A DNA stretch of 10,288 nt from assembly GCA_016930515.1 (NCBI GenBank), contig JAFGGO010000004.1:1-10288 (forward strand), given 5' to 3'. The stretch comes from Promethearchaeota archaeon. GTDB lineage: Archaea; Asgardarchaeota; Lokiarchaeia; Sigyniarchaeales; SOKP01. The position numbers and the translations under genes were made by a program. Below are positions 1 to 10,288 of the stretch, one piece after another. The number at the start of each line of letters is the position of its first letter. Position 1 is the first letter of the stretch. The notes below the pieces were generated by a model. The model was given only the letters and a program-made list of their open reading frames with translations, ran no database searches and was not told the DNA's origin.

Positions 1-63
1 GAGCGTTAAATTCTTGGTTGTCCGTGATGGCGTCGTGGTCGATGCTCGCTGTTGTAACACCAC
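1..63 (-). CDS. 5' end of an unannotated gene running off the left edge (M(V)LQQRASTTTPSRTTKNLTL...); repeat-unit copy A, function unknown
   Basis: Minus strand reads GGTGGAG GTG GTG TTA CAA CAG..., an SD-like motif followed by GTG (start at 63 or 60). Bases 1-57 are identical to 1083-1139, which lie in the ATG-started ORF 984-1145 in the same frame. Confidence 0.6.
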   Translation of the reverse strand, partial: MVLQQRASTTTPSRTTKNLTL

Positions 64-81
64 CTCCACCAATAGAATGTT

Positions 82-111
82 TTGCCTTGTAGTACATTCC
101 TATCAAGGCAA
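82..111. repeat. Bulged palindrome TTGCCTTG-TAG-TACATTC-CTA-T-CAAGGCAA upstream of repeat-unit copy A
   Basis: 8-bp inverted repeat plus an inner TAG/CTA pair with one unpaired T. Homologous palindromes occur at 1166-1191 and 9089-9114. Confidence 0.8.
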
Positions 112-228
112 TTTAAAAAGAAGATCGGGTAATCGTATATATGTGATTGCATTTCGATAAGAATAATCGAGGAGTTTTTATACGCTGGAGCAAATTTATT
201 TATACATTTTTCTATTATATAATTAGAA

Positions 229-507
229 ATGACACAAAAAATTAACATAAAATTGCCTCACGATCTTCTCGAACTTACTGGTCTTACTTCTAAACGCTTG
301 GAAGAAAAGAGCCTTCTAATTTGGATTTTAGAACTCTATTCGGAAGGAAAAATTACCCTTTCAAAAGCAGCTAACTTGGTTAATATGAAAGTAGATGATT
401 TTTTATTGGAATTTCGGAAAAGACATCTCAAGCACATGGGAGGTCCAGAAACTGTCGAGGAACTTAAAGACGACTTTAATACCATTCAAGAATTAACCGA
501 AGACTAA
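229..507 (+). CDS. UPF0175 family HTH antitoxin
   Basis: 92 aa with the LELYSEGKITLSKAANLVNM motif typical of UPF0175. Directly upstream of a DUF3368-like PIN gene. TATA-like TTTATTTATA at 195-204. Confidence 0.85.
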   Translation: MTQKINIKLPHDLLELTGLTSKRLEEKSLLIWILELYSEGKITLSKAANLVNMKVDDFLLEFRKRHLKHMGGPETVEELKDDFNTIQELTED

Positions 508-515
508 GCAAGCCA

Positions 516-968
516 ATGATAATTCTCGATAATAGCGTTCTGAGCGCTTTTACTCGTCTTGGACTTCTCGATTCTTTAAAACATCTATTTTCTACCGCCA
601 TTATTTCACGAGATATCCTGAGCGAATATTCGCAGAAATGGAGGGACGCTATTCCCGAATGGATTCAAGTCGTGCAATCTGACCGTAAAATTTTCTTATC
701 CAATGTTCCCTCCTCAATGAGCTTAGCGGATGCTAGCGTGGTAAAATTAGCATTAAGATTACAAAAACCCATTGCTTCGGACGATAGACCTTTAAGAAAT
801 TACGCAAAAATGCTTGGAATCTCGGTTACTGGCTCTTTAGGGCTTTTAAACCTGTTATTTAAGAAAAAAATAATCCCAACCAGAGAAAAATATCTTTATT
901 ATTTGAATTTACTTCAAGAAGACGTATATATATCAGAAGAACACTTGAGATGGGCATTGGAAGAATAA
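516..968 (+). CDS. DUF3368-type PIN-domain (VapC-like) toxin
   Basis: N-terminal IILDNSVL, central SDDRPLRNYAKMLGISVTGSLGLL. This is the usual partner of UPF0175. Confidence 0.85.
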   Translation: MIILDNSVLSAFTRLGLLDSLKHLFSTAIISRDILSEYSQKWRDAIPEWIQVVQSDRKIFLSNVPSSMSLADASVVKLALRLQKPIASDDRPLRNYAKMLGISVTGSLGLLNLLFKKKIIPTREKYLYYLNLLQEDVYISEEHLRWALEE

Positions 969-983
969 AATAATACTATTAGA

Positions 984-1145
984 TTAAAATTCCTGCGTTT
1001 TCTGGCGCACGATCTTTCGCCGCTCGACGATCCCTACCTTGTTTTTCCGCAGCAGGTCCTCGAACTTTTCGGTAAACTCCTCGAGCGTTAAATTCTTGGT
1101 TGTCCGTGATGGCGTCGTGGTCGATGCTCGCTGTTGTAATATCAT
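984..1145 (-). CDS. 53-aa ORF MILQQRASTTTPSRTTKNLTLEEFTEKFEDLLRKNKVGIVERRKIVRQKTQEF (repeat-unit copy B); small protein or truncated 5' gene fragment
   Basis: Manual translation: ATG at 1145-1143, TAA at 986-984. Homologous to 1-63, 2181-2285 and 7081-7156, with mostly synonymous differences in this frame. Confidence 0.65.
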   Translation of the reverse strand: MILQQRASTTTPSRTTKNLTLEEFTEKFEDLLRKNKVGIVERRKIVRQKTQEF

Positions 1146-1165
1146 CTGAACCATTGTGTAGTAAG

Positions 1166-1191
1166 ACCTTGTAGTAGCGTTTTATCAAGGC
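1166..1191. repeat. Palindrome copy (A)CCTTG-TAGTAGCGTTTTAT-CAAGG(C) upstream of copy B
   Basis: Same arms as 84-109 and the same 36-nt distance from the conserved GATGCTC motif. Confidence 0.75.
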
Positions 1192-1302
1192 CAATTACAA
1201 TTGCCATTTAGAATAAATCCTCTGGAAAACTATATTTACATGCAGCACTTAACCAACAACATCAAATTCAATGATTTTAAAGAGCAATCTTTATTTCATG
1301 AA

Positions 1303-1791
1303 TTAATCTAGATGTTGCTGTTTCAAGAATGATTTAACTTCTTGTCTAAAATTCGATTGATTTGGATTTAAAACAGGAATGGACTCAAATTTTTCAAAAT
1401 CTTTATCAAAAGTGATAAAAACAGACGCTTTACTTTGGATTGCCGTTATTACATGTATGGCGTCTGCAGCATAGAGGTTGCGTTCAAAAATAATTGGACG
1501 AGCAGCCACGATGAAAGCCATTTTTACAGGAACCAAGATTATTTGTTTTTTTTGAGAATATTCCCCTATCTCGCTTAAAAATAAATTCAATGCAATTTGT
1601 GCATCTTTTTCTTCGATTCTATCGAGATTTACTTGTTTTTTAAATGCGCGAAACATCTCCACTATTGTCCACTCCGAAGTTAATCCTTGAAATTCTGATG
1701 ACAATTGATTAAGAATCCAATCCGCTTCAATTCTGTCTTCAATGGGGCAATACGCGTTATAAAATACATTTGTATCTAGATACATCACCAT
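1303..1791 (-). CDS. vapC: PIN-domain VapC-family toxin
   Basis: YLDTNVF, TSEWTIVEM, LYAADAIHVITA and FITFDKDF carry the conserved acidic PIN residues. Overlaps the upstream RHH gene by 1 nt (TAATG). Confidence 0.9.
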   Translation of the reverse strand: MVMYLDTNVFYNAYCPIEDRIEADWILNQLSSEFQGLTSEWTIVEMFRAFKKQVNLDRIEEKDAQIALNLFLSEIGEYSQKKQIILVPVKMAFIVAARPIIFERNLYAADAIHVITAIQSKASVFITFDKDFEKFESIPVLNPNQSNFRQEVKSFLKQQHLD

Positions 1792-2027
1792 TATTCTTCC
1801 TCGCGTACTGATCTTATCGCCTCAACACCACTTTGGAGGGGCTTTTTTTGTCTTTTTTCAAGAAAATCCCATAATTGTTCTCTTGATAGAATCCCAAGTT
1901 GTTCCCTAACATAGGAAAAAATACCGCCTCTCACAGCTTCGCTTCTGTTTTTGATAACTCCACTTTTTACAAGCTGATCTAACCATTCAACCAGTTCTTC
2001 GTCTAAGGAAATTGAAATTGTTGTCAT
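1791..2027 (-). CDS. Ribbon-helix-helix (CopG/NikR-like) antitoxin
   Basis: MTTISISLDEELVEWLDQLVKSGVIKNRSEAVR is a typical RHH pattern, and the gene is coupled to a PIN gene. Confidence 0.88.
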   Translation of the reverse strand: MTTISISLDEELVEWLDQLVKSGVIKNRSEAVRGGIFSYVREQLGILSREQLWDFLEKRQKKPLQSGVEAIRSVREEE

Positions 2028-2031
2028 ATAA

Positions 2032-2063
2032 GTAATTAATAGATAATTACAATTATATATTTT
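2032..2063 (-). promoter_or_regulatory. Putative autoregulatory operator (GTAATTA-N5-TAATTAC, 2032-2050) and TATA box of the RHH/PIN operon
   Basis: Perfect 7-bp inverted repeat between an AATATATAAT TATA-like element (about 2052-2061, minus strand) and the ATG at 2027. RHH antitoxins commonly autoregulate at such sites. Confidence 0.55.
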
Positions 2064-2180
2064 GTGATAGAAAATAAATGTTATCGTAATGACAATATTA
2101 TTTTAGAAATGAATGTCAAAAGCATCTATTTATCATTGTGATTTTAAATTAGTGATATCTGCAATCAATATTGATAAATA

Positions 2181-2285
2181 TTATAATTTTTTTCTCATGA
2201 TATTTACCCGCTCGACGATCCCTACCCTGTTCTTGCGGAGTAAATCCTCTAATTTTTCGATTAACTCTTTTAGATACTTGACCAT
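2181..2285 (-). repeat. Repeat-unit copy C (3' part only); reads MVKYLKELIEKLEDLLRKNRVGIVERVNIMRKKL, 34 aa
   Basis: CGCTCGACGATCCCTACC is identical to 1021-region sequence. About 48/59 nt match copy B by manual alignment. Begins 8 nt after the RelE/ParE terminal stop. Confidence 0.8.
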
Positions 2286-2293
2286 GTAAAAAT

Positions 2294-2569
2294 CTATAAT
2301 TTAACGATCCTACTTACATGAAAAACAATTAAGATCTCGATAAAATCTTTTTCAATCTCATACACAATTCTGTAATCCTTTTAAAAGAATTCTCTAAGTT
2401 TCTCTTCTTTTTTATCTGAAAACTTCCATCCCATGTATGGAAAGTCTTTAAGTTGCTCTATTTTTTTAAATATTTTTTTAACAAAACTCCTTGCTCTCTG
2501 GGGAGAATCTGTTGAAATATAGGAAGAAATGTTTTCAAGATCTTCCAAGGTTCTGGCTGAAAATCTCAC
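2294..2569 (-). pseudogene. RelE/ParE-family toxin with a premature TAA
   Basis: ORF ...QLKDFPYMG...LREFF stops at TAA 2381-2383, but the same frame continues KDYRIVYEIEKDFIEILIVFHVSRIVKL to TAG at 2294-2296, supplying the YRIVY...IxxxFH RelE/ParE C-terminus. Confidence 0.85.
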
Positions 2570-2751
2570 TTCAACCTTTTTTTCTTTCGATCCTTGGCAG
2601 TTTCAAGAGAAAAATGTTGTCCTTCTTTAATTTGTTGTCGTGCCCTTTCGATTTTATCGTTTATATATAACTTATAGGCAATTTCTTCTATGCATAAATC
2701 TTCTGGTAATTCCCGAATAAAATAAATGGCGGTTTCTTTAGTTGAAGGCAT
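2566..2751 (-). CDS. Small putative antitoxin of the RelE/ParE module
   Basis: 61 aa (IRELPEDLCIEEIAYKLYINDKIERARQQIKEG) resembling short antitoxins found upstream of parE/relE genes. Overlaps the toxin start by 4 nt. Confidence 0.75.
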   Translation of the reverse strand: MPSTKETAIYFIRELPEDLCIEEIAYKLYINDKIERARQQIKEGQHFSLETAKDRKKKRLK

Positions 2752-2945
2752 GTGATTTAAAAGGAACTTTAATAATTAAAATTTTAATCATCTCAAGCAA
2801 AATCAGAAATTTACCTATAAAAACAACGATGTTAACAATTTTTCTTTTTGTAATAAGTATACTTGAAGGATGGCGTTATTAACTCTCAGAATTAAGGATT
2901 TTTTAGATTAAATATATTATTAATAAATGAAAAGAATTTTATTTT

Positions 2946-4466
2946 TTGATTGCATATGTTATTACGAACTTACTATTTCAATTTTTAAAGATTCGAGCGC
3001 GAACGCAGTTGCAAGGAAAAATAAAGAAGGACTCTAGCATTTTAATCGTTGGAATAGGCGCGTCGGCAGGTGGTTTAGAATCATTTAAAAAGTTCTTTTC
3101 TAATGTACCCGTTGATAGTGGGATGGCTTTTGTATTGGTACCTCACTTGGATCCCACTCGAGAAAGCATTTTGACAGACTTGATAATGGAATATACCTCA
3201 ATGAACGCGTTTCAGGCAGTTGATGATATGAAAATCGAACCAAATACGATTTACATCATACCTCCTAATGCAAATATGACTCTTGCTAACGGTCGCCTTA
3301 AGCTTTCTCCTCCTACAGCGCCTCGGGGTTTAAGAACGCCTATAGATCACTTTTTCAGGTCCCTTGCGAAAGAACAAGGCGATCTATCGATTTGCGTTCT
3401 ATTTTCAGGCACGGGAACGGACGGTACTCTTGGAATACGGGAGATAAACGGCGTTGGAGGGATGGTAATTGTTCAAGATCCCAGCTCTGCAGAATACGAT
3501 GGCATGCTTAAGAGCGCCATACAAAACGCCTTGGTTGATTATGTGGTGCCACCAAGCGAAATGGCCGAAAAACTTGTTAGTTACGTTCAAAAAAGGCAAA
3601 ATGTGAAAAAAAAGGAATACAAAATAGACACGCCAAGCGTTATGAATTCTATAAAGGATTTATTAGATCTATTAAGAGACCAGACGGGACACGATTTCAC
3701 ATCGTACAAGGAAAATACCCTGCTCAGGCGGATGGAAAGAAGGCTAACCATAAACCAGTTGCATGCCTTTCCCGATTATATTGAACTCGTTAAAAAAAAC
3801 AAAAAAGAGTTAGACATTCTTTTCAAGGAACTTTTAATTGGCGTGACGAATTTCTTTCGAGATAGAGAAGCATTTGACCTCTTGGAAGAAAAAGTCTTGC
3901 CAACGCTTTTTAAGGGCGATTTAGCGAATAAACCATTGAGAATATGGGTTCCAGGCTGTTCAACCGGTGAAGAAGCCTATTCAATTGCCATTTTAGTTCA
4001 CGAGTTTTTAGAGAAAAGCGGAAAAAAAAAAAAAATTCAGATATTCGCATCCGATATCGACGAAACATCAATGGAAAGGGCTCGCACGGGAGTCTATCCT
4101 GACAATATTGCTGCCGATGTTCCAAGCCTCCTCCTCAAGAAATATTTCAAAGCGGAAGGTAATTACTATAAAATCAAGAAAAATATTCGAGAGTGCATCA
4201 TATTTGCGGTTCACGATGTTTTAAGCGACCCTCCTTTTTCAAAAATGGACTTGATCAGTTGCAGGAACCTCCTAATATATTTGAAACCGGCGATTCAAAA
4301 CGACTTGATGGTGTTGTTTCACTACGCCTTGAATCCAAAAGGGTACATGCTACTTGGCAATTCAGAAACGATAACTGGCAGTTCTAATTTGTTTTTATGC
4401 ATTAACCCAAAATGGAAGTTGTTTCAGCGAAACGACGCGACGCCCGCGATATTGAACATCTCGTGA
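2946..4466 (+). CDS. cheBR: CheB methylesterase-CheR methyltransferase fusion (N-terminal part of a CheB-CheR-PAS-kinase gene); true start may be TTG at 3009
   Basis: CheB motifs GASAGG, PHL and SGTGTDG. CheR motifs IGVTNFFRD, WVPGCSTGEEAYS, ASDID, DLISCRNLLIY and LLGNSE. Confidence 0.92.
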   Translation: MIAYVITNLLFQFLKIRARTQLQGKIKKDSSILIVGIGASAGGLESFKKFFSNVPVDSGMAFVLVPHLDPTRESILTDLIMEYTSMNAFQAVDDMKIEPNTIYIIPPNANMTLANGRLKLSPPTAPRGLRTPIDHFFRSLAKEQGDLSICVLFSGTGTDGTLGIREINGVGGMVIVQDPSSAEYDGMLKSAIQNALVDYVVPPSEMAEKLVSYVQKRQNVKKKEYKIDTPSVMNSIKDLLDLLRDQTGHDFTSYKENTLLRRMERRLTINQLHAFPDYIELVKKNKKELDILFKELLIGVTNFFRDREAFDLLEEKVLPTLFKGDLANKPLRIWVPGCSTGEEAYSIAILVHEFLEKSGKKKKIQIFASDIDETSMERARTGVYPDNIAADVPSLLLKKYFKAEGNYYKIKKNIRECIIFAVHDVLSDPPFSKMDLISCRNLLIYLKPAIQNDLMVLFHYALNPKGYMLLGNSETITGSSNLFLCINPKWKLFQRNDATPAILNIS

Positions 4467-4478
4467 CCCTTTCCTCCT

Positions 4479-6656
4479 TTGAAGAATAATGGATATAAAG
4501 GGCAAATAATAAATGCTCCTGCGAAAATCAAGACCACTAACATTCGCGGTATGATGGAAAAGATTTTACTTGACAATTACTCTCCTCCCTCGGTCGTCGT
4601 AGATAATACGGGGACGATTCATTACATTCACGGTAAAGTAGGCGAATTTCTGGACTTTCCCGAAGGGGAAGCAAAAATGAACATTCACGCAATGGTAAAA
4701 AAAGGATTGAAATTGAAAGTATCTGCGGCAATTCGGGAAGTAATTAAAGGAAACACGAAAATACACTACGAAAACTTGCCCCTGAGTTTAAATGGTAAGA
4801 ACAAGATGCACTTCAATTTATCGTGCATACCCGTAGGAGAACCCCAATCCATGAGTGGATTAATCATCGTTTCTTTTGAAAAAGTAATCGCTGAGGAGAA
4901 AAAGGCAAAAGCGATTGAATTGAAAAATGATTCCAACAAAAGCAATAATATTAAACTAATAGAATTGGAAGAAGAGCTTCATTCGACGAGACTACACCTT
5001 CAAACAACCATCGAAGAGTTGGAGGTCACAAACGAAGAATTGCAAAGCACGAATGAAGAATTACAATCGTCAAACGAGGAGTTGCAAAGCACCAACGAGG
5101 AGCTCCAAACTTCTAAAGAAGAACTTCAATCCGTTAACGAAGAATTAACCACCGTGAATAACGAATTAGAGTCCAAGATTACCGAGTTGCGAAAAGTTAA
5201 CGACGATATGAATAACTTGATGGTAAGCTCCAAAACAGCCACGTTATTCCTGGATAACGACTTACTCATTAAAAGGTTCACTCCCGCTTGCAAAACGATG
5301 CTAAATCTAATCGATAAGGATGTTGGACGCTCGATCAAGCACATCTCAACCAACTTGCTCTACGATAATATGATCACCGACGCTGAGGAGGTTCTTAAAA
5401 CGCTCGTACCGAAGGATGTTGACGTTCAGATACAAAATAGCGGTTGGTTTAACATGAGGATTGTTCCCTACAGAACGATTAATAACGAGATAAAAGGAGC
5501 GGTTATCACCTTTTTTAACATTACCGAGAGGTATATAGCAGAAAGAGAAAAGGTAAAATCCCTATTATTTTTAGACAGCATGGTGGAAACCACGAGAACC
5601 CCGCTCGTTGTTCTCGATAATAATCTTAAAATCGTCCGGACAAATAAGGCATTTCTTAGCATGTTTAATACAACAAGCGAAAAAACAACCGGTAAGTATT
5701 TTCAAGACCTCGGAAATCGGCAATGGAACATTCCTCAACTCAACGATTTGTTAGAAAAAGTCGCTTCTAGGCATTCATCTTTCTTCGATTACCAGGTTGA
5801 GCACGCTTTCGAAAAGCTGGGAACAAGAATTATGATATTAAACGCGTCTGAATTAAAGATAGACGAAGAAAACGCGATGATCCTCTTGAGTATTGAAGAC
5901 ATCACATTTCAAAAGAATTATGAGAGAGACTTAATTGAATCCAAGACTAAAACTGAAGATGCCCTCAATAGAGCCACGTTTTTTAAGGATTTGCTCACTC
6001 ACGATGTGAACAACATCCTTCAAGTGCTGCTAGCAAGCAGCGAAATGATTTCAAAATTTTACGATGTATCAAATGGCCTGGAAAAAATAAAGGAACTCAA
6101 CTCCATCAACCTAGAACAACTCATAAAGGCAAAAATTTTAGTACACAACATTCAGGTAATTTCCAAGCTTGACGAGGAGAAGAAAAACATCCATCCTCTT
6201 GAAATCGTGGGAATCGTAAAGAACGCAATTATTGACCTCAAAAACGCTTATAAGGAGAAAAACATCGTCACGAACATCCAAAGCGTTAATGAAAAGGAAT
6301 CCGTTATGGCAGACGAATTAATCAAGGACGCTATCGAGAATGTCCTCTTGAACGCCGTCAAGCACAACGACAAGGAGAACATCGCTATTACCGTTCAAAT
6401 CTCAAGAGAGAAGGCAGATTCTGCGAGCTATGTCAAGCTAGAATTCATCGATAACGGACCTGGAATAGATGATGATAAAAAAACCGATATTTTCGAAAAA
6501 AAAACCCGGGAGTCATTAAAAGGATTAGGAATTGGATTATCCATTGTTAAAAATATTATTGAGCGATACGACGGAAAAATTTTCGTTAAAAATCGCGAAA
6601 AAAACAACCATAAAAAAGGATGTAATTTCGTCATGTTAATACCTCAGGTGATATAA
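4479..6656 (+). CDS. PAS / coiled-coil / PAS-PAS sensor histidine kinase; same-frame continuation of cheBR
   Basis: NEELQST heptad coiled coil typical of CheBR fusions, PAS segments, H box THDVNN, N box ENVLLNAVKH, G1 DNGPGI and G2 GLGIGL. Same frame as 2946-4466, separated only by TGA at 4464-4466. Confidence 0.9.
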   Translation: MKNNGYKGQIINAPAKIKTTNIRGMMEKILLDNYSPPSVVVDNTGTIHYIHGKVGEFLDFPEGEAKMNIHAMVKKGLKLKVSAAIREVIKGNTKIHYENLPLSLNGKNKMHFNLSCIPVGEPQSMSGLIIVSFEKVIAEEKKAKAIELKNDSNKSNNIKLIELEEELHSTRLHLQTTIEELEVTNEELQSTNEELQSSNEELQSTNEELQTSKEELQSVNEELTTVNNELESKITELRKVNDDMNNLMVSSKTATLFLDNDLLIKRFTPACKTMLNLIDKDVGRSIKHISTNLLYDNMITDAEEVLKTLVPKDVDVQIQNSGWFNMRIVPYRTINNEIKGAVITFFNITERYIAEREKVKSLLFLDSMVETTRTPLVVLDNNLKIVRTNKAFLSMFNTTSEKTTGKYFQDLGNRQWNIPQLNDLLEKVASRHSSFFDYQVEHAFEKLGTRIMILNASELKIDEENAMILLSIEDITFQKNYERDLIESKTKTEDALNRATFFKDLLTHDVNNILQVLLASSEMISKFYDVSNGLEKIKELNSINLEQLIKAKILVHNIQVISKLDEEKKNIHPLEIVGIVKNAIIDLKNAYKEKNIVTNIQSVNEKESVMADELIKDAIENVLLNAVKHNDKENIAITVQISREKADSASYVKLEFIDNGPGIDDDKKTDIFEKKTRESLKGLGIGLSIVKNIIERYDGKIFVKNREKNNHKKGCNFVMLIPQVI
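5020..5170 (+). repeat. Degenerate 21-nt tandem repeats encoding (N/K)EELQ(S/T)x heptads
   Basis: Protein segment TNEELQSTNEELQSSNEELQSTNEELQTSKEELQSVNEELTTVNNEL. Confidence 0.85.
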
Positions 6657-6657
6657 A

Positions 6658-7023
6658 ATTCCAAGCGTTTTTTTAGTAGAAGATAACAAGGACCTCTTGT
6701 TTACATTCGAACTCACGCTTCAATTCCACCATTTTCAGATCTTAGGAAAGGCGGTAGACGGAGAGGAGGCGATTCAAAAATTTGCTAGTTTTTCCGAAAA
6801 ACCAGATGTAATTGTAATAGATCATCGTGTACCAAAAAAAAATGGCATCGAAATCATGAACGAAATATTAAAAATAGACAATTTCGCAAAAATTATATTC
6901 GTTAGCGCTGATTTTAGCGTAAAGGAAGAAGCCTTGCTCAAGGGAGCGTTTAGCTTTTTAATTAAACCAATTACTCAAGAAGAATTATTATTTGAAATCA
7001 ATAACGCATTAGAAAATGCTTAA
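6658..7023 (+). CDS. Single-domain (CheY-like) response regulator; the apparent start codon is ATT
   Basis: The frame extends upstream of the called TTG (6697) as IPSVFLVEDNKDL, supplying the acidic pocket. Phospho-acceptor in VIVIDHR, plus FVSAD and FLIKP. SD-like AGGTGAT at 6646-6652. Confidence 0.85.
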   Translation: MPSVFLVEDNKDLLFTFELTLQFHHFQILGKAVDGEEAIQKFASFSEKPDVIVIDHRVPKKNGIEIMNEILKIDNFAKIIFVSADFSVKEEALLKGAFSFLIKPITQEELLFEINNALENA

Positions 7024-7080
7024 GGTTACATCTAAAATCGAAGTTTCGTTATTTTTAACATCGAAAAATGAATGATTTAA

Positions 7081-7156
7081 ACGATAATCGCCACTTTTTC
7101 GCAATATATCCCCGAGCTTTTCGGTAAATTCTTCGAGCATCAGGTTCTTGATATAT
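7081..7156 (-). repeat. Repeat-unit copy D (3' part, decayed): ...IKNLMLEEFTEKLGDILRK...
   Basis: 32/40 nt match copy B (1061-1100 vs 7113-7152) by manual alignment. Starts immediately after the DUF5615 stop codon. Confidence 0.75.
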
Positions 7157-7158
7157 TT

Positions 7159-7509
7159 TTATCTAATTCGAATGTTGTTTTCTGAAATAATGATTAGTTT
7201 ATTTCGATATTTATCTTGCTTTAAATCTATTTTGTTGAGCGCATTTTCTAAAAGCGTATTTGTTGCCTTTGGATGAGGCGATAGGACTTGAAGCACGATG
7301 ATCAATGGTGGCGTTCACTGAAAAAAGCGATAAAGCACGCCAAATCCTCTGTCGTGAGTCAAGATAGGCAACTTTTTTAAGACAGCGTACTCGAAAATTC
7401 TCGTCTTCAATTCCTGCCTGTAAAACATCTTCGATTTTAACAACTTTAAATCCCACTTTAATCAAACACGAAATTGTTGATTTAGACATTCGTCAACAAT
7501 TATTTCCAT
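7159..7509 (-). pseudogene. DUF5615 / VapC45-like PIN toxin pseudogene
   Basis: Reconstructed as MEIIVDEC/KSTISCLIKVGFKV...AGIEDE/IFEYAVLKKLPILTHDRGFG...FFQ*TPPLIIVLQV...LIIISENNIRIR. It has two frameshifts (about 7485 and 7399) and an in-frame TGA, and lies downstream of DUF433, its usual partner. Confidence 0.8.
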
Positions 7510-7552
7510 CGACATCCCATTAAATGATTCGTTAAGTGTTAATTATTTCTTC

Positions 7553-7688
7553 TTAGGGATGATCCATGATATAGGCGGAATAGTCTAAAACCGGCCCTTA
7601 TATCTTCGTCCGTAATTCGTGGATATTCCTGAGTGATTTCTTGAAAAGAAGCACCATCTCTTAACATCGTTAAAATTATGGATAACGC
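7553..7688 (-). pseudogene. C-terminal half of a DUF433 antitoxin
   Basis: ALSIILTMLRDGASFQEITQEYPRITDEDIRA/VLDYSAYIMDHP, with a frameshift near 7591. Matches the DUF433 pattern G.S..EI...YP.LT.EDI.A.L.Y. Confidence 0.85.
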
Positions 7689-7702
7689 ATATGCATATTA
7701 TG

Positions 7703-7763
7703 AAATGAGACAATATTAGACATTTTTCTCATTTTAGTGTCCCGATGGTTGCGTCCTCGGGGA
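7703..7763 (-). other. Two hairpins at the 3' end of the TnpB-like element (candidate right end / omega-RNA scaffold)
   Basis: AAATGAGA (7703-7710) / TCTCATTT (7727-7734) and TCCCGA (7740-7745) / TCGGGGA (7757-7763), directly after the reconstructed stop codon. Confidence 0.5.
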
Positions 7764-8847
7764 TTAACTGGCAGAAGATGTACTGCCAGGTGATTGATCA
7801 ATCTGATATTTCTTGATGAGCCTGAGTGCTCGATCCTCTATATTGTCCCCCGAATTCTCATGAGTGTTTATCGTGGTCTTGCGCGTCTGGCAAGTGCCCA
7901 CGTCGCCCATTCCTATCGATGATTCCGCCACATCCATGATGATACCTGCTGGTGCCCTCTTTTCTCACGAGCACGAGCTTGATGTTTTTCTGAAGCGTGA
8001 GGTTCACCACTAAGAGCTCTTGAGCGATCAGGTCAAGGCTATCGGGCATTGAGCTGATGGAACGCGCCAGGGCGCCTCGCTTGTCCTTCGTATCCTTAAT
8101 GAGGTCCGCTTCAAGTGCCACGTGGTTCACGTTCCATTCGAGCACTTTCTTTCCAAGTTGAATCCGTGCCCTCCTCAGCACATCAGTTCTCAAGCGGGAA
8201 CGGCGCAGGTGAGCTAATTGAAGCTCCTTATTGAGCTTGAGCGCCTTTTTCAAATCATGGCACGTGTCGCTCCTTGCTTGAAGGTAGGAGATCGCGAGTT
8301 CTAGGATGTTCCATTTATTTAATAAATACTTGAGAGCGCTGTCCATTTCCAAGTCTCGCGAGCCTGTTAGCTCGTGCTCGCTCAATCTATTAACGTCAAT
8401 TCCAAGAGCGGAAACGTGGGTTGCTGAGATTTTAGAATTGATGGGCGTAACTCCGTTCAAGTGATTGGCAGTGATGAACAACTCTTCGGGACCAGAAAGA
8501 ACCAGGTCCACTTTAATGGTCTTGCCCGGTCCACTTGGCATGTTGAACCTAAAGAGCCGGAGTCGCACGCCTTTTTCAAGTGCTCTCAGCACCTTTTTTG
8601 GCGCATATCAGCAAGTTTTCGCTTTCTTGAGAGAACCATCAAGGGAAGCTTTAGGATCTTCAAACCACAGGCATCCGTCTTCCAACAGGAGTTCTTTCAT
8701 CTTGCCTGCATTTCCCGGACGATAGATGTCAAACTCTTGTCCCATGACAAGGTCAATCGGGAGTGGCTGGAGCTGCGTGCGGTCGTGGAAGGGTTTTTTC
8801 AACGTGGTGTCGGGCGTGAACATGCGGATACACCTTTCTATTGCGTG
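7764..8847 (-). pseudogene. tnpB: TnpB/Cas12f-like RuvC nuclease, disrupted (in-frame TGA at 8608-8610, +1 frameshift at about 7906) and probably 5'-truncated
   Basis: RuvC-I ALGIDVN, RuvC-II VALEADL and LVRKEGTSRYHHGCGG. After the frameshift it reads DVGTCQTRKTTINTHENSGDNI (second Zn knuckle and RuvC-III position) to TAA at 7764-7766. ORFs 8608-8934 and 7858-8592 share one frame (KTC*YAPKKVLRA). Confidence 0.75.
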
Positions 8848-8934
8848 TATCCGAGTTCCTTTAATAATTGGTTTACCCGATAAAATCTTGGGATCGACTG
8901 TAATGCGATCGTTAAAAACCTTCATTTTCTTCAA
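8848..8934 (-). pseudogene. N-terminal 29 codons of the DUF433 antitoxin
   Basis: RITVDPKILSGKPIIKGTRI is the DUF433 signature. It is fused in frame to the inserted TnpB-like sequence. Confidence 0.9.
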
Positions 8935-9029
8935 TAATCAGTACTTAATAGCGTCCGACAAAAATAAATAGCTCATTTCTCGTCTCGTTTACTAAAATAT
9001 TAAAGGAAAAGGAAGATAGTATCATATAT

Positions 9030-9114
9030 GTCACGGAATCGTGATCGATGCTCAACTCTCATTATCAGCTCAACCTATTTGTTCTTACGCCTTGAAGTAC
9101 CCTCCTATCAAGGC
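9030..9114 (-). repeat. Repeat-unit copy E (5' part: palindrome GCCTTGA...TCAAGGC at 9089-9114, leader and first codons, decayed)
   Basis: 9030-9053 matches copy A 24-47 at 19/24 nt. The palindrome lies 35 nt from GATGCTC, versus 36 nt in copies A and B. Confidence 0.75.
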
Positions 9115-9208
9115 TTTTAAAATAAATTATCGAGCTAGACTACCCATTATTTTTTTGTATTTATTTGTATTTATTTCCATGAAAACATTTCTTGTGAATA
9201 TTTATTAT

Positions 9209-10288
9209 TCAAGTAAAATCGTTTTGACAAGACTTGCATTTTTCTCCTTGCTCGCGTAATCTATTCACGCAATCCTTGCAATAAAAAGCTTGACAATGAG
9301 GACAAATATATACATTTTGTCCCTCGACAGGCCCTTCATGTACTATGCACAAAAAGACTTGTTTTTCAATGTCTAGTTCAGATTCCGTTTGTGCTAATTC
9401 TTCGGCCTCCAAATTCTTATCCACGATCTTCGGTATTAATCCATCGTTAGCAATTTGAGAATAATGATCGACTTTAAGAGCAAAATCCGATTTTGCGTTT
9501 AATAATTCTGTTTTTTTAGCTAGTTTTCCCCCTGCCAATGGAATGTCCCCAATGCTGATTTGGGTGGCTTTTTTTTTCCTTCTAATTACGATCCCCCCTA
9601 AAGTCACGATACCAACAACGAGGAATGCTCCAAATATGAGTTCTGCTGGAAAAGATGGAGCGTCCGTGAGCGTGTTGACGAGCACATACATTGTTACCGT
9701 CGCACGATCGCCATTTGCGTCAGTTATCGTTAGATTCACCGTGTAAGTTCCAGGTAATCCATATACATGAGCTGGATCCTGCTCGGTGGAGTTTGATCCA
9801 TCTCCAAAATCCCAATAAAACATGAGAGGTGCATTCCCTCCACTACCCGTAAATAAGAATTGAACGGGGCGCCCCTCAATGAAATAAGTCCCATCAATGC
9901 TGAAATTCGCGATGGGCACGAGGTCTTCCAGGACAATAATATATTCTATTTTTATCCCAATATCTCCAATCAAATCGATCACGGTTAGATTTACGGTATA
10001 AATGCCGTTTGTAACATATTGATGTATTGGCTCCTCTTTGGAAGAACTTGTACCATCTCCAAAATCCCAGTAGAATGTGAGTGGGGCGTTCCCACCACTA
10101 CCGTTATAGGTGAATCTTATCGATTGTCCTTCTATTATTGTTGACTGATTTACGAGGAACTTTACCTTGGGTTGGGTATCCGCGTAAACGGTAATATAAT
10201 TTGTTTTTATTTCGACATCATCATCACCATTCGCATCCAAAACGGTTAGATTTACCGTGTAAACGCCAGGTGAGGCGTACGCATGCAC
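9209..10288 (-). CDS. C-terminal part of a PKD-repeat surface protein with a single TM helix and a C-terminal RING-like Zn-binding domain (5' end outside the window)
   Basis: Repeated FYWDFGDG...HxY...GxYTVNLTV with a 255-nt period (9798-9814 vs 10053-10069). Hydrophobic LIFGAFLVVGIVTLGGIVI is followed by RRKKK. C-terminal pattern CxxH-x11-CxxC-x4-CxxC-x10-CxxC. Confidence 0.88.
   Translation of the reverse strand: MHAYASPGVYTVNLTVLDANGDDDVEIKTNYITVYADTQPKVKFLVNQSTIIEGQSIRFTYNGSGGNAPLTFYWDFGDGTSSSKEEPIHQYVTNGIYTVNLTVIDLIGDIGIKIEYIIVLEDLVPIANFSIDGTYFIEGRPVQFLFTGSGGNAPLMFYWDFGDGSNSTEQDPAHVYGLPGTYTVNLTITDANGDRATVTMYVLVNTLTDAPSFPAELIFGAFLVVGIVTLGGIVIRRKKKATQISIGDIPLAGGKLAKKTELLNAKSDFALKVDHYSQIANDGLIPKIVDKNLEAEELAQTESELDIEKQVFLCIVHEGPVEGQNVYICPHCQAFYCKDCVNRLREQGEKCKSCQNDFT

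Follow-up and report, generated by a model that had tools for sequence, protein, structure and literature searches.

The window analyzed here is a stretch of 10,288 nucleotides (nt), contig JAFGGO010000004.1 (C37) of the genome of a Promethearchaeota archaeon (GCA_016930515.1, hereafter G000; 190 contigs, 4.0 Mb, 35% GC, and 94% complete). Along it, toxin-antitoxin (TA) and signaling genes are separated by copies of a short repeated segment, which we call the unit and which is the subject of this work. An initial annotation had described five homologous segments, all co-oriented on the minus strand, and these were confirmed by BLAST and alignment, with their extents refined to copies U05 to U01 (Table 1). 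Using positions 975 to 1215 as the query, matches were found at 1 to 118 (E 7e-25), 2196 to 2267 (E 7e-11), and 7095 to 7150 (E 7e-5). The segment at 9039 to 9114 was a weak match (E 0.2 genome-wide, 0.002 within the locus) and carries an exact copy of the palindrome GCCTTG-N14-CAAGGC, which has four occurrences in the 4-Mb genome, all of them inside units, and whose reversed control has none. The end of contig C66 and the start of the window fall within one unit, with one base missing between the contigs, and we therefore treated both as a single locus of about 43.9 kb. In the whole-genome search, 21 copies of the unit were recovered, all in the same orientation (21/21 on one strand), spaced 0.7 to 4.9 kb apart and with one to three genes in between. 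BLAST against the complete 4.0-Mb assembly retrieved no copies beyond C37:1-9114 and C66:10310-33582; they are not scattered along the genome away from TA genes but confined to one TA-rich locus.

The alignment of all copies indicated that the unit spans 250 to 270 nt and comprises a promoter region, an operator-like palindrome, a ribosome-binding site, and codons 1 to 47 of a small gene. Reading along the minus strand, the order is an upstream motif (TCGAAATGCAATCACAT), CTCGAT, a TATA-like box (TTTTTAAA), the palindrome, a Shine-Dalgarno (SD)-like sequence (GAGGTGGTG), a GTG start, and the 47 codons (VSIDYDSVTDKNLTLEEFTEKLEDLLRKNRIGIVERRKIIRQKQQEF), the conserved blocks being the upstream motif, TTTTTAAA, the palindrome, GAGGTGGTG, and the start codon. 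The palindrome is 6 to 8 bp long (CCTTGTA...TACAAGG) and is sited at the expected archaeal transcript start. At the 3' side, most copies are homologous up to unit position 269/270, two up to 273, and another two up to about 280, and past this limit the frame of the unit continues for 0 to 35 unrelated codons; the 5' limit is position 1, positions 13 to 20, or further in. Column conservation across units by codon position was 0.88/0.95/0.76, so the unit sequence evolved as a protein-coding gene. The frame beginning at the GTG is intact in at least seven units, and several of the truncated units have gained an ATG of their own. A 4-nt frame-shifting insertion is present in six units, including the two large copies of the window (U05 and U04); in U04, an upstream ATG (position 1154) restores a frame of 56 amino acids (aa) (984 to 1154) that ends at the unit boundary. 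No Rfam family matched across the 44-kb locus. All this supports the initial description of a non-integron cassette array, delimited by the 5' end of a gene with its upstream palindrome.

The gene in question belongs to a highly conserved family of 59 to 63 aa found in metagenome-assembled genomes (MAGs) of Promethearchaeota/Lokiarchaeia. In three species of the same genus, and also in other genera, it is a single-copy gene located in housekeeping surroundings. Its neighbors there are, to one side, a HEAT-repeat protein, a GHMP kinase, and an orotidine monophosphate (OMP)-decarboxylase-like gene and, to the opposite side, a sugar-phosphate isomerase-like gene and a small GTPase. The unit is thus the front of a conserved host gene, and the suggestion that it was the end of a mobile element had to be abandoned. 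The full small protein ends in a basic tail (RELTRKRDVRDR-like; RELxR-type), and within the array the natural tail is found only in the innermost copy (U21, C66:10258-10449). Therefore, the gene exiting the window at base 1, which had been tentatively annotated as a recombinase, transposase, or TnpB, is another truncated unit, a 47-codon fragment that continues on C66. In G000, the ancestral neighbors of the small gene appear on C152 and C175 without the gene. We consequently dropped the idea that the array occupies its ancestral position; either the locus was rearranged or intervening contigs are unplaced. Another Lokiarchaeial genus showed variation in the space directly upstream of the single-copy gene (L046/L047 versus L045), where some contigs have, and another lacks, two small genes on the opposite strand (147 and 118 aa), the single-copy gene itself not being duplicated. 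Elsewhere in G000, the C-terminal ca. 55 residues of a 430-aa protein without a Pfam match (C47:17755-19047; L180:5756-7048) are homologous to the small protein, and orthologues of 426 to 438 aa are found in several related genomes. Neither the small protein nor this larger relative had any match in Pfam, NCBIfam, PHROGs, or the ESM Atlas.

The cargo of the whole array is made up of ParE/RelE pairs, PIN toxins with ribbon-helix-helix (RHH) or MazE/AbrB-type antitoxins, DUF433/DUF5615 pairs, a UPF0175/DUF3368 pair, a TumE-like pair, the CheBR-kinase-receiver operon, and six paralogous membrane-anchored repeat (surface) proteins of 544 to 679 aa that share 32 to 47% aa identity. ParE_toxin, PIN, RHH_1, MazE_antitoxin, DUF433, DUF5615, and UPF0175 were above the Pfam cut-off, TumE fell marginally under it, and the DUF3368 match was weak. 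For the window, Pfam agreed with the cargo as first annotated: UPF0175 with a weak DUF3368/PIN, RHH/PIN, an antitoxin with ParE/RelE, CheB-CheR/PAS kinase/receiver, and DUF433 plus a decayed DUF5615. As expected for type II TA modules, the antitoxin and toxin genes matched to families are small and adjacent to each other.

The position of the units followed the orientation of the cargo. Opposite-strand cargo was followed by a full, promoter-bearing unit in 11/11 cases, and same-strand cargo by a 5'-truncated unit in 8 of 9, the truncated unit often beginning 10 to 40 nt from the toxin stop codon, sometimes with a new ATG; these counts are less than independent because cassettes have been duplicated. 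The DUF433/DUF5615 pair on C66 sits inside a unit, flanked by overlapping parts of it (positions 20 to 206 and 160 to 270), while the ParE cassettes come after a full unit and end in a unit part covering positions 172 to 269 or 196 to 257. Decay is most advanced at the window end of the array, with a split DUF433 gene, a frameshifted DUF5615 gene, a nonsense mutation in ParE, and the remnants U01 and U02.

To place the locus among its relatives, we compared 40 related genomes, and only one other species was found to carry arrays (G003, MAG DZ2M.159), with at least eight units on three short contigs; in a sister assembly, units are located at the end of a 242-kb chromosomal contig. G000 and G003 have in common the UPF0175/DUF3368, PIN, and DUF433/DUF5615 cassettes together with their flanking units, at 76 to 79% nucleotide identity, and the breakpoints around the DUF433/DUF5615 pair are the same in both. 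The UPF0175/DUF3368 cassette of the window (229..968) has its orthologue between the same flanking units (93% and 72% aa identity). However, the blocks adjoining the common cassettes differ, so that the one other array-bearing species shares cassettes in a different order. Both array-bearing assemblies are fragmented. A scan of genome contigs revealed no further array-bearing species, and a metagenome scan with the 14-mer AAATGCAATCACAT gave only chance single matches, with a unit in 0 of 119 loci. No published description of such arrays was found in the literature searched.

The sequences of the units carry marks of recombination among themselves. They are mosaic, the nearest relative of a unit differing from segment to segment. 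Codons 1 to 18 are 91 to 98% identical among six G000 units but 79 to 88% identical to the G003 units, and synonymous variants are fixed per species in all copies, even in the units that flank common cassettes with the same breakpoints. Their GC content at third codon positions (GC3) is 0.70 to 0.85 in G000 and 0.62 to 0.72 in G003, compared with 0.11 to 0.23 for single-copy orthologues, 0.36 ± 0.08 for long open reading frames (ORFs) genome-wide, and 0.24 to 0.49 for the cargo. Frequent GC-biased gene conversion would be the simplest cause of these values, the alternative being a function at the nucleotide level.

A second, smaller array was detected in the same genome (C149:1000-4200). There, the repeat consists of the upstream region and the first 11 to 19 codons of a fadH-like gene, with variable end points; copies are located at 1385 to 1510 and 2375 to 2521 (the native start of the gene is at 4103), and TA modules lie between them, including a TumE-like pair whose proteins are 60% and 53% identical to those of the TumE-like pair in the C66/C37 array. 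This repeat is unrelated to the C66/C37 unit, and the array logic is therefore not bound to one sequence. The C149 array was found through TA homology and had been missed by the per-contig self-comparison of G000, which at the thresholds used returned CRISPR arrays on C95 and C89 only (CRISPR-type, with a period of about 67 to 75 nt).

The features of the window are compiled in Table 1.

Table 1. Units, cargo, and other features of the window (coordinates refer to the window unless a contig is given)
Feature	Position	Strand	Remarks
U05, 5' two-thirds	1..178	-	Upstream motif AAATGCAATCACAT 141-154, TATA-like box 112-119, palindrome 84-109, SD-like GGAGGTGGTG about 58-70
U05, coding part	Leaves window at base 1, resumes C66:33582-33484	-	4-nt-insertion (frameshift) subtype
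UPF0175 antitoxin-like gene	229-507	+	Pfam; opposite strand to units
DUF3368/PIN-like gene	516-968	+	Weak Pfam match; opposite strand to units
U04	984..1194	-	From palindrome (1166-1191) through 3' boundary; without TATA box and upstream motif
PIN toxin	1303-1791	-	Pfam
Ribbon-helix-helix antitoxin	1791-2027	-	Pfam
U03, 3' part only (unit positions about 176-258)	2181..2285	-	Own ATG 9 nt past ParE stop; 34-aa ORF
ParE/RelE toxin	2297-2569	-	In-frame TAA at 2381-2383 where paralogues carry His
Antitoxin	2566-2751	-	Pfam
CheB-CheR fusion	2946-4466	+	Pfam
PAS histidine kinase	4479-6656	+	Pfam; 21-nt tandem-repeat coiled coil
Receiver domain	6697-7023	+	Pfam
U02, short 3'-part remnant (unit positions about 159-191)	7095..7150	-	ORF 7009-7140 diverges after 15 residues
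DUF5615/PIN-like toxin pseudogene	7159..7489	-	At least two frameshifts versus intact paralogue C66:16824-17186
DUF433 antitoxin gene, split	7539..8934 (parts 8847-8934, 7539-7687)	-	1159-bp insertion 7688-8846
U01, outermost, most decayed	9030..9140 (about)	-	CTCGAT, TATA-like box, exact palindrome 9089-9114, first ~10 codons (SIDHDS), then ends
PKD-domain membrane protein, C-terminal Cys-rich tail	9209..10288	-	Runs off contig; either flank or outermost cargo

The insertion that splits the DUF433 gene has a GC content of about 50% and contains a 244-aa ORF (7858 to 8592) with no match in Pfam; a TnpB-like identity considered for this ORF was dropped for lack of Pfam support. A deletion derivative of ca. 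250 bp retaining both ends of the insertion is located at C158:6335-6587, and the insertion is thus probably a mobile element of an unrecognized kind. Within the PAS histidine kinase gene, seven tandem 21-nt repeats (5010 to 5173) encode a heptad coiled coil (NEELQS-type). The receiver ORF uses a TTG start and was matched by the Pfam profile only from position 18, and it may be N-terminally truncated or mis-started.

Taken together, we interpret the window as the outer and seemingly oldest end of a single cassette array of ca. 42 kb on the chromosome of a Loki-type Asgard archaeon. Recombination inside the units, probably general homologous recombination, would have built and reshuffled the array, and its TA modules would stabilize it; we would give this reading a probability of about one-half. 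The array would be anchored on the small conserved Lokiarchaeial gene, with every cargo block between two copies of its front. A block together with one unit may loop out as a circle, or arrive from a relative, and a single crossover could then insert the circle into the intact gene or a different unit (Campbell-type insertion), an entry that would duplicate the unit or just the part of it borne by the circle. The overlapping unit parts around the DUF433/DUF5615 pair and the partial-unit ends of the ParE cassettes count as signatures of such insertions. Unequal crossover would duplicate or delete blocks, gene conversion would keep the units alike, and the engine would be the general homologous-recombination machinery of the cell rather than a dedicated integrase. 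TA modules would build up because their loss is penalized, and full units would provide a promoter, with same-strand TA operons downstream. The circles, their insertion, the use of the unit promoters, and the stabilizing role of the TA modules are what we infer from these patterns. Of the initial annotation, the cassette array delimited by a gene front is borne out; on the other hand, no dedicated recombinase was found in the locus, and the sequence patterns favor homologous recombination at least equally with a site-specific system.

We also searched for enzymes that could move cassettes in a site-specific manner. A Pfam scan detected no recombinase domain in any ORF of C66 or C37, and the single PF00589 match in the assembly, a Xer-like tyrosine recombinase, is on C90. 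The intact small gene has as its convergent neighbor g10 (C66:9005-10216), which encodes a 403-aa protein of a small Loki-specific family with three Cys clusters and with HFH (193 to 195), Y232, and Y251 invariant in seven homologues. Its structural model had a predicted local distance difference test (pLDDT) score of 75 when built with seven sequences, against 31 for a single-sequence AlphaFold prediction. The best VIA-align matches were SIRV1 ORF119, Reps of CRESS viruses, and RepB nuclease domains, at Z scores of only 4 to 5.6 and among generic RRM folds; neither Foldseek nor a PDB sequence search gave a significant match. Three members of the family are encoded in G000 and a fragment in G003, and the search of 39 other relatives yielded none. 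Only adjacency and co-occurrence make g10 a candidate enzyme. It belongs to a mobile-element-like block beside the intact small gene (C66 [L022] 2739-10216; GC3 0.41 to 0.61), in which this Rep-like HUH candidate is accompanied by a membrane-anchored FtsK/HerA/CedD-like ATPase (5162 to 6898), a gene weakly resembling cyclases of the cyclic-oligonucleotide-based antiphage signaling system (CBASS) (7141 to 8052), and ORFans. Related modules are present on C5, on C101, and in GCA_048941805.

Several points weigh against homologous recombination as the builder of the array. The 3' boundaries cluster within 12 nt (269/270, 273, and about 280) and the breakpoints of partial units at positions 159 to 206, and such clusters could mark a site-specific cut instead of random crossover. 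Likewise, the 56-nt near-identical island formed by codons 1 to 18 could be a selected protein-binding or recombination site and not a conversion tract. The first entry of unrelated cargo between units goes unexplained by homologous recombination alone, of 41 genomes searched, none but the two with arrays contained the Rep-like HUH family, and, with arrays in two species only, the comparative basis is thin. Many of these observations would fit a true integron analogue, in which a site-specific recombinase acting in trans recognizes a core site in the unit and brings cassettes in or out, whether or not they bear a promoter. The enzyme could be the HUH family of g10, the single Xer-type tyrosine recombinase, or one as yet unrecognized. 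The array is co-oriented and TA rich like those of chromosomal integrons (see PMC9668308 for archaeal integrons), the unit parts kept by most copies intersect at about positions 197 to 206, the island shows near identity among the units of one genome and differences from one species to the other, as expected of a site coevolving with its enzyme, and the HUH-like family combines its invariant HFH and Cys clusters with matches to Rep nuclease folds. We nevertheless regard this as unlikely. The unit has no hairpin-rich structure, since the folding of a 282-nt unit was no better than that of shuffled sequences on either strand (single-stranded DNA z scores of +1.30 and +0.92); attC sites are imperfect palindromes of 55 to 140 nt that fold as single strands, and the unit has only a local palindrome of 6 to 8 bp. 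Nor do its boundaries all fall at one position. A search around the remaining HUH genes and their relatives did not reveal the unit palindrome, and the HUH gene elsewhere sits in a mobile-element module with the FtsK/HerA-like ATPase and without the small gene. Moreover, the C149 array has an unrelated repeat, and the co-occurrence of the HUH family and arrays in two sister species is not independent evidence. It is likewise doubtful that Loki-type Asgard archaea possess a general system of gene capture, driven by an unrecognized enzyme (e.g., Rep-like HUH), with the promoter-bearing 5' (or other) end of a host gene acting at once as attachment site and as expression platform; this would be a functional counterpart of the integron made from entirely different parts.

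Two further explanations were considered. The array might have arisen by passive tandem duplication, in which a segment running from inside the small gene to the upstream DNA was repeatedly copied by unequal or illegitimate recombination and then diverged; TA modules would have landed later in the spacers, the units would have stayed alike because the truncated proteins or promoters are useful, and the cassettes would be immobile. The six surface-protein paralogues, each beside a unit, are consistent with this scenario, as are the extension of homology from the unit into the gene for U07/g46 and U20/g15, the recurrence of TA families within the array, the protein-level constraint visible in the conservation by codon position, and the intact GTG frames and newly gained ATG codons. 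However, it is hard to reconcile with at least seven unrelated types of cargo, in both orientations, placed exactly between units, with at least three distinct 3' boundaries, with single TA pairs flanked by overlapping unit parts, with a block order that differs between the two species, or with the six frameshifted units that still retain the downstream codons, and we find it improbable. Less probable still is a homing-type replacement of the 5' end, by which a selfish element bearing an endonuclease would cut the small gene and repair would bring in the element with a cut-resistant, recoded 5' end, pushing the old one upstream; repeated invasions would stack old ends, mirroring what WHO elements reportedly do at FBA1 in yeasts. 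It would account for former gene ends stacked beside one intact gene, for the stronger decay at the far end of the array (U01, U02, and the damaged DUF433, DUF5615, and ParE genes), and for codons 19 to 47, which differ between units nearly only at synonymous sites, close to saturation (76% identity between U21 and U08), with the protein kept. Yet codons 1 to 18 are homogenized and not recoded, surface-protein genes make up the innermost blocks, the array shows a weak gradient of age, and no known homing-nuclease family was found in neighbors or cargo with Pfam, PHROGs, or NCBIfam, several ORFs having no family match at all.

If arrays can form on ordinary gene ends without an integrase, Asgard archaea would have a simple and overlooked route to collect and exchange accessory genes (TA, surface, and signaling), and the tools used to find integrons would miss a whole class of arrays. 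In addition, homogenization within the genome together with a GC3 of 0.7 to 0.85 in a genome of 35% GC provides a natural test case for GC-biased gene conversion in archaea, and this homogenized, high-GC3 signature could be used to find more such arrays.

Among known systems, the pdif (Xer-dependent) modules of Acinetobacter plasmids and the tmRNA-gene islands of Dehalococcoides are also recombinase-less modules, often with TA genes, that are bounded by repeated sites and thought to be moved by a host enzyme. However, their sites are short (about 20 to 28 bp) and bound by the recombinase, while the segment described here is 250 to 270 nt of promoter and coding sequence in which no such core was identified. 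The WHO homing elements at FBA1 of Torulaspora and Lachancea yeasts, reportedly described by Coughlan and colleagues in 2020, are said to leave a row of old ends through repeated replacement of the gene end. The resemblance lies in the former gene ends lined up, together with passenger genes, next to an intact gene. In the yeasts, however, the 3' end is replaced and the element encodes the endonuclease; the array described here involves the 5' end and revealed no endonuclease gene.

Integrative elements and the decayed remnants they leave (CIMEs) can accrete in tandem at a target gene, as in the ICESt1-related islands of Streptococcus (PMC5704250), which also produces direct repeats that are copies of the target-gene end and divide accessory blocks, with the intact gene at one end and most blocks without recombination genes of their own. 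Unlike in that case, no integrase was found here in any block or neighbor, the blocks are of one or two genes instead of islands, and the repeat is a 5' end with its promoter, up to 270 nt long, present in 21 copies and homogenized, probably by gene conversion. Finally, chromosomal integrons have been reported in Archaea and are enriched in Asgard genomes (PMC9668308). With them our array shares the co-oriented arrangement of small cassettes, many of them TA modules and in either orientation, and a promoter logic for same-strand cassettes. It differs in having neither IntI nor attI and in its delimiter, which is not a folded attC but the protein-coding sequence of a host gene with its promoter. 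Every full delimiter has its own promoter-like region.

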